A stretch of 59,477 bases of DNA from a virus. Lineage: Duplodnaviria > Caudoviricetes. A program made the position numbers and the translations under genes. Position 1 is the stretch's first letter, and the number at the start of each line of letters is the position of its first letter. Below, piece after piece: positions 51,478-57,640 of the stretch. The DNA lies in IMG/VR virus record IMGVR_UViG_3300024051_000139, positions 1-59,477 of that record, one strand, 5' to 3'. The notes beneath the pieces are model-generated. The model was not told the DNA's origin. It saw only the letters and a list, made by a program, of their open reading frames with translations, and did not search any database.

Positions 51478-51777
51478 ATGCTTTCGGAAAAACTCGTGAA
51501 ACTGCCCGAGCTGGCCGCCGCGCTCGACCGCTCGGAAGACTGGATCAAGCGCAACTGGTTGCGCCTGCACATGGAGCGCGGCATGCCCCGCAAGCTGACG
51601 GTCGGCTGGTCCTGGCCGCGGGGCGCACTCGAGCGCTGGCTCGAACAGGGCGCCGACGGCGCTGCCAGGGAAGAACCTGTGCCGACGACCAGGCCGCGGG
51701 AGACGGCTCCCCTGCAGCTCGCCATAGCCAACCAGAACGCCCGCATGCGGCAGCGCTATGCAGGAGGGCGGGCATGA
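51478..51777 (+). CDS. Excisionase/AlpA-like DNA-binding protein
   Basis: 'LPELAAALDRSEDWIKRNW...GMPRKL..GWSWPRGALERWL'. Confidence 0.7.
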   Translation: MLSEKLVKLPELAAALDRSEDWIKRNWLRLHMERGMPRKLTVGWSWPRGALERWLEQGADGAAREEPVPTTRPRETAPLQLAIANQNARMRQRYAGGRA

Positions 51778-52040
51778 CCTCCTCCATCTCCGAAAACCCC
51801 GCCGCGCTCGCACCGCACAAGGTGCTCACGCGTCGCCAGCAGGAAGCCATCCTCGCGATCGGCCATTTCCGCCATATCCGCAAGGTGGGCACCACATGGG
51901 AGATCGGCCCGCACCGCTTCTCGTTTTCCCTGGTCGACGCGCTCGTGCGGCGCCATCTGGCGCGAGAGGCAAGTCGCTCGCTCTCCCTCACGCTCGCCGG
52001 CTGGCTCGCCGAAAAGCGCCTGAAGGAGCGGCAACAATGA
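51774..52040 (+). CDS. Hypothetical protein
   Basis: ATGA-coupled; MTSSISENP... Confidence 0.6.
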   Translation: MTSSISENPAALAPHKVLTRRQQEAILAIGHFRHIRKVGTTWEIGPHRFSFSLVDALVRRHLAREASRSLSLTLAGWLAEKRLKERQQ

Positions 52041-52279
52041 AGACGACACGCGAAACCCTCGCTGAGCTCGAGCAGCTCGCCCTGAAGGGCGACGAGCTGA
52101 TGACGCGCCTGGTCGCCGATCTCGGCGAATACCACGCCGATCTCGAGGCCCTCATGCGCGCCGCCTCACTGGCGCGCTCGACGTCGTCGGCCGTCATCGT
52201 CGAGGCAGCCTGCATCCTGACGGAGCGCGAGCGGGGCGAGCCGCTGTGCGAGACCATGAGAAGACAGCGCCTGCAATGA
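52037..52279 (+). CDS. Hypothetical protein
   Basis: ATGA-coupled; MKTTRETL... Confidence 0.6.
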   Translation: MKTTRETLAELEQLALKGDELMTRLVADLGEYHADLEALMRAASLARSTSSAVIVEAACILTERERGEPLCETMRRQRLQ

Positions 52280-52404
52280 GCCCGTGCTGCCTCATCGCCC
52301 TCGGCCTCGCCGCCTTCCTGCTTTTCGGGCTGCTGCTCGCCAACATGCACCGCCTCTTCCCGAACCTCCGGCGCAGCGCCGGCCGGGACCAGCGCGGGGA
52401 CTAA
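52276..52404 (+). CDS. Small single-transmembrane protein (42 aa; not in ORF track)
   Basis: MSPCCLIALGLAAFLLFGLLLANMHRL...; ATGA-coupled. Confidence 0.55.
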   Translation: MSPCCLIALGLAAFLLFGLLLANMHRLFPNLRRSAGRDQRGD

Positions 52405-52438
52405 ATCTGCCACCTTTGCCTCCAGGTCGGCGGACCAT

Positions 52439-52482
52439 GAAGGCCGGCGGTTTTGTGCTGCGTGCCGCCGGCCTTCGCTTTT
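52439..52482 (+). terminator. Hairpin (terminator/attenuator) before DGR target 1
   Basis: GAAGGCCGGCGG / CCGCCGGCCTTC 12-bp stem followed by GCTTTT. Confidence 0.5.
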
Positions 52483-52506
52483 AACCTCACCAACGGGAGT
52501 AACTAA

Positions 52507-54785: not shown

Positions 54786-54795
54786 TGGCTATGGT

Positions 54796-54916
54796 GCGCC
54801 CGTCCATTTTCGGCGGCTCGTGGATCAACGGCTCGAACGCGGGCTCGCGCTACGCGAACCTCGACAACTGGGCCGAGAACTCGAACGAGAACCTCGGCGT
54901 CCGCGCTGCCTGCGAC
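54796..54916 (+). ncRNA. DGR template repeat (TR)
   Basis: Adenine-containing master copy (21 A, seven AAC codons) of VR1/VR2, between avd and RT. Confidence 0.95.
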
Positions 54917-55099
54917 GACCCCTTTCCGGCTCGGCGACGGTCACGGCCGCGTCGGCCATGTTCCACCGGCGCCTATGCGCCAGGGTGGTCGGCCCAACCT
55001 TCCAGCTTCGGCAAATACTTTCCAAGGTCCGGCAAAGCGGGGAGTAGCGGCAATTGCGCCGTCGAAACCCGCGGCCGGCATCCCGCCGCGAGGAATCCC

Positions 55100-56131
55100 A
55101 TGGCGAAGAAATACCGCAACCTCATCGGCCCGATCACGGCCGACGCAAACATGCGCGAGGCCTTGCGCCTCACCGCGCGCGGCAAGCGCCTGACGCCCGC
55201 CTATCTCGAATTCAAGGAATATTCCGTCCTCAACCTGCACCTGCTGGCGGCAGCCATGCGCGACGGAACCTACAGGCAGGGCCAGCCGAACGAATTCCGC
55301 ATCTACGACCCGAAGGAGCGGCTGATCTGCGCGCTACCCTTCGAGGACCGTGTCGCACAGCAGGCCGTCGCCCGCATCATCGCGCCGATCTTCGACACCA
55401 CCCTCCTGCCGCGCTGCTTTGCCTGCCGGCCGGGCAAGGGCACCCACGCCGCTGCCATCGCCCTGCAGGCCGACATGCGCCGCCTCGATCGCGACGGCCC
55501 GCTCTACGCGCTCAAGACGGACTTCTCACGCTACTTCTATTCGATCGAGCGCGGAACCCTCTGGCGGCTGATCGACGCGAAGATATCGTGCCGCGCCACG
55601 CTGCGCCTCATCGAGGCCATGCTGCCGCGATCCGGCATCGGCCTTCCCATCGGCAACCTGACTTCGCAGATTTTTGCCAATATCTATGCCGGCGTCGTCG
55701 ACCGCCACCTGCAGCAGGAGCTCGGCGAGCGGTACTGGTATCGCTACATGGACGATATCGTGGTGCTCGGCCGCGATCCGGATCACCTGCGCAAGGTGCG
55801 AGCCTCCATCGAGGGGCTTTCCCGCGACCGGCTTGGCCTGCGCTTTTCCAAGTGGAGCATCCAGCCCGTCAGCCGCGGCGTGAACTTCGTCGGCTACCGT
55901 ATCTGGCCGACACACAAGCTGCTGCGCCGCGACAGCGTTGTCCGCGCCCGCCGTAAGATCAAGGCCTACCGCGCCGCCGATGAGCACGCCAGGCTGGAAC
56001 GGTTCCTTGCCGCCTGGACCGGTCACGCAAAATGGGCGGATAGCCGCAATCTTCTCAGAAACCTCGGCCTGCCGACGACCGTGATCGGTCGGCTAGTCGC
56101 CGCCACATCAGAGGGAGGCGGCCATGGCTGA
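55100..56131 (+). CDS. brt: DGR reverse transcriptase
   Basis: 'GLPIGNLTSQIFAN' (DGR-type SQ motif), 'RYMDD', 'NFVGYRI'; GAGGA RBS before ATG 55100. Confidence 0.96.
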   Translation: MAKKYRNLIGPITADANMREALRLTARGKRLTPAYLEFKEYSVLNLHLLAAAMRDGTYRQGQPNEFRIYDPKERLICALPFEDRVAQQAVARIIAPIFDTTLLPRCFACRPGKGTHAAAIALQADMRRLDRDGPLYALKTDFSRYFYSIERGTLWRLIDAKISCRATLRLIEAMLPRSGIGLPIGNLTSQIFANIYAGVVDRHLQQELGERYWYRYMDDIVVLGRDPDHLRKVRASIEGLSRDRLGLRFSKWSIQPVSRGVNFVGYRIWPTHKLLRRDSVVRARRKIKAYRAADEHARLERFLAAWTGHAKWADSRNLLRNLGLPTTVIGRLVAATSEGGGHG

Positions 56132-56435
56132 TCGTGCACATCTCCAGCGCCTCGAGCGCGAGCTCGTCGACAAGGGCAAGCTCATAGAGGCCGGCTGGAT
56201 CGGCCTGCGCCTCGCGGCCATTCCGGACAGCGCGTCGGCGACGCAGCTCGAAGAGATGCGGAATGCCTTCTTCGCCGGTGCACAGCATTTGTTCTCCTCC
56301 ATCATGTCGATCATGGATCCCGGCGAAGAGCCTACCGAGGATGATCTACGCCGCATGGGTAGCATCCAGGACGAACTCGACGACTTCATCGAGAAATTCG
56401 AGCTCAGGCACTTTCCGGCGAAAGGGCGCGCGTGA
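56124..56435 (+). CDS. Hypothetical protein
   Basis: GGAGG RBS; overlaps the RT end and the int start. Confidence 0.7.
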   Translation: MADRAHLQRLERELVDKGKLIEAGWIGLRLAAIPDSASATQLEEMRNAFFAGAQHLFSSIMSIMDPGEEPTEDDLRRMGSIQDELDDFIEKFELRHFPAKGRA

Positions 56436-57640
56436 TGGCCGAGGTCAGGATCCGCCACGTCGCATGGAGAAACGGCCGCCCGCGCTTCTCGCCTGGCCCG
56501 ACGCTCCGGGCGAAAGGCTACAAGCCTGCCGACCTGAAGCATGCCGATGGCCGCTGGTTCAGCCAGGGCGAGGCGCTGGATTGGTCCAATGCTCTCCGGC
56601 AGGCACTGATGGCCGCCAAAGCGGAAAGCGCGCCAGTGGCCCTTCCTGCGTCGATTGCGCCGCTCGTCTCGCGGCCGGCGGTGGCCTACCCCATGTCGCA
56701 GCTCTTCGAGGACTGGTTCAGAAGCCCGCGCGTGCTGAAGAGGAAGGACGGCACGCCGCGCCCGCCGGCGACGATCAAGGACTACAAGCAGAAGGCCCGC
56801 GTGCTTGAGTTGTGGGATCCGGACATGTGGGCCTCGGAGATATCGGCGCTCGACCAGTCGATCTGCTACGGCCTCTACGAGGATCTCTGGAAGAGCAAGG
56901 GCCTGGCGACGGCCCGCGGCGCATTGACGATCCTCGGCATGGCGATCAGCTGGGGTCTGCGCACCGGCCGCGTCAAGGGCCTCACCATGAACCCCGCGCG
57001 CGATCTCGATATGCAGGCGCCGGCGGCCCGCGCCCGCTTCATCACCCGCGAGGAATTCGATCACCTGGTCGCGACGGCCGAGGGCGAGAAATTCCGCCGG
57101 CCGGACTTCGCCGACATGCTCTATTGCGGCGTTTGGACCAGCCAGCGCCAGTACGACCGTCTCCGCCTGCAGCTCTCGGCCTTCCGCAAGGGGCGCTTCG
57201 TGCTGCGACAGAACAAGACGGGAGCGATCGTCAATCCGCCCGTTGCAGCTCCCTACAAGGCACGCATGGACGCCGCGGCCGAACGCCGCAAGATCAAGGA
57301 GATCATCAGCCCCTACGCTCACCTCAACGAGAGCACCTGGGCGCCGTGGAACCACTGGACCTATCGCAATCTCTTCTCCGAGATCCGCGCCGAGGCGGCG
57401 AAGACCGTGCCGAGCTGCGCGACGATCATGGAAAAGGATCTGCGCGCCACCGGCGTCACCTGGATGGCGCTCGCCAAGAACACCCTGCCGCAGATCTGCG
57501 CCGTCTCCGGTCACTCCCTGCAGGGCGCGCACATCATCCTGAAGCACTACCTGGCGCTCCATCCGGAAATGGCGACGACCGCAATCGGCAACCTGGTCGA
57601 ATGGTACGAGAGCGGCAGTAACTCGGATATGGCGGTGTGA
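56432..57640 (+). CDS. int: Tyrosine integrase of the podophage
   Basis: 'WTSQRQYD', 'LRQNKTGA', 'KDLRATG', 'VSGHS...KHY'; adjacent to att/tRNA. Confidence 0.85.
   Translation: MMAEVRIRHVAWRNGRPRFSPGPTLRAKGYKPADLKHADGRWFSQGEALDWSNALRQALMAAKAESAPVALPASIAPLVSRPAVAYPMSQLFEDWFRSPRVLKRKDGTPRPPATIKDYKQKARVLELWDPDMWASEISALDQSICYGLYEDLWKSKGLATARGALTILGMAISWGLRTGRVKGLTMNPARDLDMQAPAARARFITREEFDHLVATAEGEKFRRPDFADMLYCGVWTSQRQYDRLRLQLSAFRKGRFVLRQNKTGAIVNPPVAAPYKARMDAAAERRKIKEIISPYAHLNESTWAPWNHWTYRNLFSEIRAEAAKTVPSCATIMEKDLRATGVTWMALAKNTLPQICAVSGHSLQGAHIILKHYLALHPEMATTAIGNLVEWYESGSNSDMAV

Follow-up and report, generated by a model that had tools for sequence, protein, structure and literature searches.

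Diversity-generating retroelements (DGRs) of phages are generally read as adsorption host-range switches, and the locus described here raises the question of whether such an element could also diversify proteins that act away from the virion. The DNA under study is the provirus record IMGVR_UViG_3300024051_000139 of the viral contig collection IMG/VR, a single record of 59,477 bp that was analysed over its whole length and is called the window below. The element in question is a DGR near its right end, whose two variable target proteins (T1 and T2) belong to the family of Mtd, the receptor-binding protein of phage BPP-1. The original prediction, made from the sequence without database searches, was that these targets are encoded among early genes beside the integrase, lack the part of Mtd that attaches to the virion and might have a role other than tropism. 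By alignment, and for T2 also by modelling, the targets keep the beta-sandwich and the variable C-type-lectin (CLec) domain of Mtd and lack its N-terminal beta-prism, and their cassette belongs to a distinct lineage that is mostly found just upstream of prophage integrases; we lean towards an off-virion role for T1 and T2 over a non-canonical receptor-binding one.

Anatomy of the retroelement

A complete DGR of the BPP-1 class is confirmed at positions 52507-56131, with two target genes that each carry a variable repeat (VR), the accessory protein Avd, the template repeat (TR) as well as a reverse transcriptase (RT).

52507-53382, + strand: target 1 (T1), a 291-aa Mtd-family protein with beta-sandwich and CLec domain and no prism
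53247-53366, + strand: VR1
53385-53406, + strand: GC hairpin with a GAAA loop, directly 3' of VR1
53438-54370, + strand: target 2 (T2), a 310-aa Mtd-family protein
54232-54351, + strand: VR2
54369-54390, + strand: 9-bp hairpin with a GAAA loop, directly 3' of VR2 (z -4.15)
54417-54785, + strand: Avd (bAvd) accessory protein (PF22296, 5e-27, 95 bits against a cut-off of 40)
54796-54915, + strand: TR, with 7 AAC (Asn) codons
55100-56131, + strand: DGR reverse transcriptase (RVT_1, 3.9e-15)

The RT is 53% identical to BPP-1 Brt across residues 1-316 of 328 and branches in a tree with the DGR RTs of 75 other cassettes, while Avd is 49% identical to its BPP-1 counterpart and lies over the NCBI equivalog cut-off (NF033474, 115.9 bits against 80). 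Within the 120-nt core of the TR, which holds 21 adenines, VR1 differs from the TR at 14 positions and VR2 at 12, and all of these differences (14/14 and 12/12) fall on TR adenines. The VRs vary where the TR has its seven Asn codons, TR and VR part ways from about position 120, and each VR is followed by a hairpin with a 4-nt loop, a candidate for the GC hairpin that DGRs require, with the IMH, for target recognition at the VR 3' end. Judged by these features, the cassette looks functional. The contig holds no third VR, as the TR with wild-carded adenines matched only VR1, VR2 and itself. The TR itself lies within an open frame continuous with the RT gene, giving a 461-aa open reading frame (ORF; 54746-56131) in which the start aligned with that of Brt is at 55100.

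Comparison of near-identical relatives for VR turnover found that most pairs are one sequence filed twice; the first targets of one pair of loci (L098 and L106) have 12 of their 22 differences in the last 150 nt, which is too few for a claim of turnover. Variant forms were present in metagenome runs (one RNA-library and three DNA), whose contigs come from metagenomes with several relatives. A one-target form, in which contigs join position 53405 to 54394 with 7 other letters between, was found in one DNA run and one RNA-library run, and positions 56052-56435, at the 103-aa ORF that follows the RT (o103), are replaced by 63 letters in other contigs from the three DNA runs, so that T2 and o103 appear dispensable in relatives.

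Targets without the N-terminal prism

Searched with phmmer against all chains of the PDB, T2 aligns over residues 9-307 to Mtd 49-378 (E 2.9e-45) and T1 over residues 17-289 to Mtd 63-378 (E 3.5e-41); the significant matches are Mtd variants only, and a pectate lyase stands at 0.22. Pfam recognises mtd_2nd alone in the two targets (PF21916, 27.7 and 34.3 bits against a cut-off of 24.6), and phrog_11262, the Mtd family that PHROG annotates as tail, matches them from profile position 67-80 of 393. The AF2 model of T2 (mean pLDDT 79.9) is confident at residues 7-250 and low in the VR, and it matches only the Mtd structures 1yu0-1yu4, with E of about 1e-24 and TM of 0.73-0.77; a three-copy T2 homotrimer prediction (alignment A3) scored 0.03 against a mark of 0.42 and weighs neither way. 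Alignment and model are therefore in agreement with the original prediction that the N-terminal domain is not intact: the targets are, on this evidence, Mtd-family proteins in which the sandwich and the variable CLec domain are kept and the prism is absent.

Both target ORFs already open at the first ATG, GTG or TTG after a stop, so that no residues are available before the sandwich. An anchor that is split off and encoded in trans was considered and rejected: a six-frame search of the window for Mtd_N (PF18454) gave no match at E<=10, and a tblastn search with BPP-1 Mtd matched only T1 and T2. What is missing is of interest for the virion, as a passage in PMC10743442 presents the prism as the part presumed to attach the Mtd trimer to the tail fibre, and one in PMC6328139 describes Mtd as an obligatory trimer promoted by prism and sandwich together. 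The absence of a signal peptide from the targets, also predicted, agrees with inspection and a hydropathy scan, which are not a dedicated predictor. A plasmid search gave 0 matches, and NCBIfam has no match for the targets or for the small ORFs upstream of them.

Position in the prophage

The cassette is part of an integrated temperate phage, with an integrase by a tRNA gene and att repeats bounding head, tail and lysis genes. The prophage of about 38.5 kb is bounded by a 48-bp exact repeat at 19264 and 57744, which is the 3' part of tRNA-Lys(ttt).

19264-19311: attL core, 48-bp exact copy of the tRNA-Lys 3' part
21117-23708, - strand: tail fibre/spike, 863 aa, without VR; its N-terminus matches tail-fibre PHROGs
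50381-50629, - strand: Cro-like helix-turn-helix (HTH) protein that heads the - strand early and late genes (Pfam HTH_3, 2.4e-7)
50596-50662: TTTGCA cluster 1, five copies, over the cro-cI gap and into the 5' end of the cro-like gene
50692-51330, + strand: cI/LexA-like repressor, HTH and S24-like C-terminus (phrog_4, 9e-9)
51393-51465: TTTGCA cluster 2, four copies, 3' of the cI-like gene and ahead of the first small ORF
51478-51777, + strand: 99-aa ORF, earlier called xis-like, an identity that is unsupported
51774-52404, + strand: three small ORFs of 88, 80 and 42 aa, ATGA-coupled
52439-52476, + strand: terminator-like 13-bp G+C-rich hairpin, then GCUUUU, upstream of the T1 ribosome-binding site
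56124-56435, + strand: 103-aa ORF (o103) of no known family, overlapping RT and int
56432-57640, + strand: tyrosine integrase (phrog_1, 5.5e-14; no Pfam match at 0.01)
57744-57819, - strand: tRNA-Lys(ttt), whose 3' 48 bp (57744-57791) are the attR core

The - strand carries the Cro-like gene with replication-type genes (Toprim/DUF7146 and ParB-like/DUF6551), the virion and lysis genes (portal, major head protein, tubular proteins A and B, fibre/spike, endolysin) and two large internal-virion-type proteins. The virion genes (21117-39750) are on this strand throughout. The genes from 50692 to 57640 all lie on the + strand, in the order cI/LexA-like repressor, four small ORFs, DGR, 103-aa ORF and integrase. 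Two further parts of the original prediction, that the cassette lies on the strand opposite to every virion gene and that the phage has its own non-variable spike, are thus borne out. The Pfam matches of the repressor are under their cut-offs; for the integrase, a custom profile was seeded with the window's own integrase, which makes the window's score on it circular, and phrog_1 is the independent support.

The spike has no match in Pfam or to PDB sequences, and its body is beta-helix-like according to Atlas leads only. A further Atlas lead is that Mtd_N occurs in 56% of the members of one viral pectate-lyase spike cluster, which suggests, as a lead only, that the prism could be a portable module for virion attachment. 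Elsewhere on the map, a 559-aa ORF at 40338-42017 (- strand), where the large terminase is expected, has no PHROG or Pfam match. Positions 1-19263 hold a second mobile element of lower G+C (0.51-0.61) with + strand ORFs of head and packaging type; it abuts attL, so that two elements stand in tandem at the tRNA-Lys site.

Control signals upstream of the cassette

The window has 36 copies of the motif TTTGCA where 24.2 +/- 4.9 are expected, and 9 of the 36 fall in two stretches of about 70 bp flanking the cI-like gene. This layout, which fits the operator-like motifs noted at the outset, resembles operators on either side of a repressor gene. The four small ORFs that follow (99, 88, 80 and 42 aa; 51478-52404) are linked by ATGA stop/start overlaps and are without family match. 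The first of them has no Pfam, PHROG or NCBIfam match (HTH_23 at 0.022 is under its cut-off), and the 42-aa ORF encodes a hydrophobic peptide (KD 2.73).

The hairpin at 52439-52476 (z -3.26) lies after the small ORFs and before T1; none of 200 shuffles (0/200) was as stable, and a scan with a loop limit of 8 missed it. With this hairpin in place, a single operon from the operator region is not shown: of the xis-to-int operon that had been proposed, the + strand run ending in the integrase stands, and the xis identity is unsupported. At the other end of the run, RT and o103 overlap, as do o103 and int, so that RT and integrase are very probably co-expressed. One related locus (L017) has a similar hairpin and T-run directly before the ribosome-binding site of its first target. 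A survey of hairpins before T1 was uninformative (104 of 134 loci at <= -20 kcal/mol), because strong hairpins are found nearly everywhere in these loci of high G+C. No LexA boxes were found near the cassette, and a sigma-70 scan, whose consensus may not suit the host, found no promoter-like site on the + strand of 50300-57900.

A lineage of integrase-side cassettes

A protein search returned 366 relatives at E<=1e-10, and the best 120 of these are all 289-330 aa long, the named sources among them being Rhizobium, Agrobacterium, Shinella, Brucella anthropi/Ochrobactrum and Mesorhizobium. IMG/VR holds 418 relatives. The loci examined were 65 from genomes and 80 of the 418 from IMG/VR, with neighbourhoods based on our own ORF calls and a limited number of family scans. 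The family is kept at 50-84% identity in many genomes, and at least two targets are present in 19 of the 36 short-target genome loci with an RT match. In a FastTree phylogeny of 76 RTs (dereplicated at 90% identity, partial RTs and RTs with stops excluded), a branch with SH-like support of 99 sets the 64 that belong to short-target cassettes apart from the rest.

The original prediction had called for a survey of the placement of the cassette in homologous prophages. Among 69 loci (no less than 3 kb of downstream sequence each, after dereplication at 97% RT identity), a tyrosine integrase follows the RT on the same strand in 37, at a median distance of 1.1 kb and within 500 nt in 12; another 8 have an upstream integrase only, and the other 24 lack one in the flank, a large serine recombinase being present in one of them. 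A tRNA gene stands directly after the integrase in at least nine genome loci. The 25 largest clusters of flanking ORFs, counted without dereplicating the loci, take in 298 of 544 ORFs, and about 20 of the 25 could be annotated through Pfam and PHROGs or through likeness to clusters so annotated. DNA-metabolism genes are the commonest neighbours. The clusters comprise DUF5131, MT-A70, C5 and other DNA methyltransferases, a sliding clamp and a helicase; further clusters are ParB-like, dNMP phosphatase, DUF2303, PAPS-reductase-like, AAA ATPase and HTH proteins, together with cI-like repressors, integrases, HK97-type terminase and portal (5 ORFs each) and a few clusters of no known function. In locus L071, whose T2 is 72% identical, the cassette lies amid homologues of the cro-side replication genes of the phage studied here.

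The virion genes of these relatives differ. T7-like tubular protein B is present in 2 of 32 cassette-carrying genomes, and in other relatives HK97-type head genes come next after the cassette; Mtd_N was detected in 1 of the 32 short-target-cassette genomes, against 3 of 6 BPP-1-type control genomes. The cassette of the window belongs to a distinct lineage that is common in prophages of the Rhizobiales type and is found in early DNA-metabolism modules, mostly just upstream of integrase and att. This placement is kept across differing virion backgrounds, the host genomes being mostly without the tail type of the phage studied here.

Off-virion binders or receptor-binding proteins

Our results raise the possibility, which we hold tentatively, that T1 and T2 could well be off-virion binders made early, a reading that draws on predicted domain content and gene neighbourhood. 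Since the lineage travels with early DNA-metabolism and integrase genes and not with one tail type, the odds of an off-virion role are raised. The original proposal of a non-tropism role thus gains partial support: its premises, the missing prism and the early, integrase-side position, stand, and several counter-examples weaken it.

A number of observations weigh against the off-virion reading. Mtd, the one homologue that has been characterised, binds receptors, and the targets are 36% identical to it over both retained domains; no defence or anti-defence family matches them. Among the best 150 cluster representatives, 124 reach the start of the sandwich. Of these, 82 are longer, fibre-like proteins that end in the module and have over 80 additional residues at the N-terminus (median 218), 9 have 31-80 extra residues and 33 are short like T2; on this count the module is mainly a fibre tip. 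A P2-like prophage of Bordetella genomosp. (L051) has a short Mtd-like gene directly after a tail-fibre gene and downstream of baseplate genes (L051:8455-11026), with no Avd or RT detected in the 20-kb locus. Short-target cassettes of the BPP-1 type also stand among terminase, portal and head genes:

L055:7119-14642: BPP-1-type DGR cassette between terminase and portal
L060:6823-14707: BPP-1-type DGR cassette between portal and a head-morphogenesis gene

Such contexts show that cassettes insert in many places, which makes position an unsafe guide to function, and a role in the virion is compatible with both the gene position and the missing prism. The distance of about 29 kb to the spike, on which the original prediction had relied, holds for the integrated map (28.8 kb from T1 to the spike gene) and fails for the excised circle, which puts the cassette 6-8 kb from the spike gene; across the att junction the T2 stop is 7.8 kb from it, in convergent orientation. 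The terminator-like hairpin before T1 may also separate the segment from T1 to int from the operator-controlled start. As a limit on the lineage evidence, the finding of no tail family among the commonest flank clusters comes from a search that was not exhaustive.

Several other contexts of the module were observed. In most BPP-1-type loci a bbp4-like gene lies 3' of the cassette, and the isolated phages S-CBS3 and P12026 have longer Mtd homologues that stand among structural genes. In two loci (L043 and L045, at about 9040-10972) one ORF of about 644 aa joins the N-terminal 146 aa or so of Bbp9 to Mtd 52-381, which looks like a fibre-Mtd fusion in place of the prism.

It is possible, if on the doubtful side, that T1 and T2 are still receptor-binding (tropism) proteins or a free adhesin, and that the early-side position is simply where a mobile cassette landed. 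In one variant of this explanation, an anchor-less trimer would attach to the spike or a different tail protein by way of the beta-sandwich apex or a short, conserved N-terminus. The strong homology to Mtd, a model that matches only Mtd structures and a PHROG family annotated as tail all speak for it, as do the fibre fusions that make up most relatives, the short form beside the tail-fibre gene of L051, the varying position of the cassette in BPP-1-type relatives and its closeness to the spike on the circular map. Surveys likewise treat Mtd-domain targets as tail proteins, as far as passages of PMC5758913 and PMC8144416 go. Against this stand the lack of an anchor domain in cis or in trans, the orientation of the cassette opposite to all virion genes and its coupling to int, and the possession by the phage of its own spike; moreover, the lineage keeps its early and integrase neighbours with differing head and tail modules, which would be unusual if one tail had to be fitted.

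It is improbable that T1 and T2 are instead made in the lysogen, in the manner of rexAB, as hypervariable proteins that sense or exclude incoming phages or other elements. The targets do lie downstream of the repressor gene in the same orientation, on a prophage arm where accessory genes are common, and the hairpin before T1 could mark a separate transcription unit; intracellular, DGR-diversified putative sensors have moreover been described for cellular DGRs (PMC10907252 and PMC7517822). Against it, the upstream operator-like repeats point to repression in the lysogen, the targets show no evident effector domain or partner, PADLOC matches no protein besides the generic RT, and the + strand of 50300-57900 lacks a promoter-like site in the scan described above.

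That the cassette is a now functionless remnant, hitch-hiking or decaying, is very hard to credit, as the missing anchor domain and nothing further speaks for it, while all ORFs are intact, both VRs differ from the TR at adenines only, hairpins follow both VRs and the family is kept at the identities given above in many genomes.

Comparison with known systems

The arrangement has its closest parallel in BPP-1, whose DGR (mtd-avd-TR-brt) has the same parts in the same order, adenine-specific mutagenesis and a VR that forms the C-terminus of a CLec domain and is directly followed by a hairpin; the BPP-1 prophage also has its cro-side genes on one strand and cI with int on the other. The BPP-1 cassette ends the tail operon beside tail-fibre and lysis genes, whereas the cassette described here is on the opposite strand and coupled to int; here there are two targets, the N-terminal prism of about 48 aa is absent, and the structural genes are unrelated save a tubular protein and the endolysin. 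In phage lambda, the immunity and int arm carries accessory genes (rexAB and the early-left genes) between the repressor and xis-int-att, in the orientation of the repressor and with operators on both sides. With these lambda genes the likeness is one of placement only, with no sequence relation.

Small variable proteins that have no virion anchor and carry the VR in a CLec fold are exemplified by TvpA, TaqVP and AvpA of cellular DGRs, which a passage of PMC6328139 describes as monomeric and single-domain; unlike these, T1 and T2 keep the Mtd beta-sandwich and are close Mtd homologues on prophages. The gut-phage proteins nd4_tgt2 and nd12_tgt2 are phage DGR targets of 234-294 aa without prism, for which the authors still suppose an Mtd-like role, and they differ in being also without the beta-sandwich and without detectable similarity to Mtd; early or integrase-side placement is not among the features described in the passages available (PMC10743442). 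The putative antigen sensors diversified by DGRs in multicellular bacteria resemble the targets in that a hypervariable CLec domain is proposed to act in the cell (PMC10907252), and differ in being large proteins of cellular conflict systems, whereas T1 and T2 are small, phage-borne and without effector domain.

DGRs, Mtd and CLec-only targets are thus already known, and within the literature searched the anchor-less, integrase-side Mtd lineage is apparently new. No report of an anchor-less Mtd lineage beside integrases was found in that literature; the supplementary tables of two surveys, PMC5758913 and PMC8144416, could include loci of this kind. None of the five DGR-related terms sought occurs in a paper on a temperate Ochrobactrum phage (PMC5492332).

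Proposed role and significance

The DGR appears active: its RT would copy the TR transcript with errors at adenines and the resulting cDNA would replace the last 120 nt or so of both target genes. Under the off-virion reading, the cassette would be read with the integrase in the + strand run that starts at the operator-like repeats, and its expression would on that account be low or absent in the lysogen, rising early upon induction or infection. T1 and T2 would then be soluble hypervariable binders in the infected or induced cell, away from the virion, with variable proteins of the host or of rival elements as putative ligands and counter-defence as the leading guess, so that the DGR would widen post-entry and not adsorption host range. 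In its widest form, which we consider unlikely as a whole, the proposal is that a temperate-phage lineage might use its DGR not for adsorption and instead for a soluble, early-made, hypervariable binder of variable intracellular host proteins, such as those of defence systems, or of rival mobile elements, as an antibody-like module of counter-defence or surveillance that would travel with the early and integrase genes and could be exchanged across virions.

Mtd-domain targets have been filed as tail proteins on homology alone, and T1 and T2 may not be ordinary host-range determinants. As the lineage is without its presumed anchor and, in the flanks examined, stands among early replication, modification and integrase genes, it offers a concrete test of whether phage DGRs also serve intracellular functions, and its relatives in culturable soil bacteria (Rhizobium, Shinella and Mesorhizobium) make direct experiments feasible. 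Were the targets to prove virion-borne, they would represent a second way of docking an Mtd-type adhesin, one that works across tail types.

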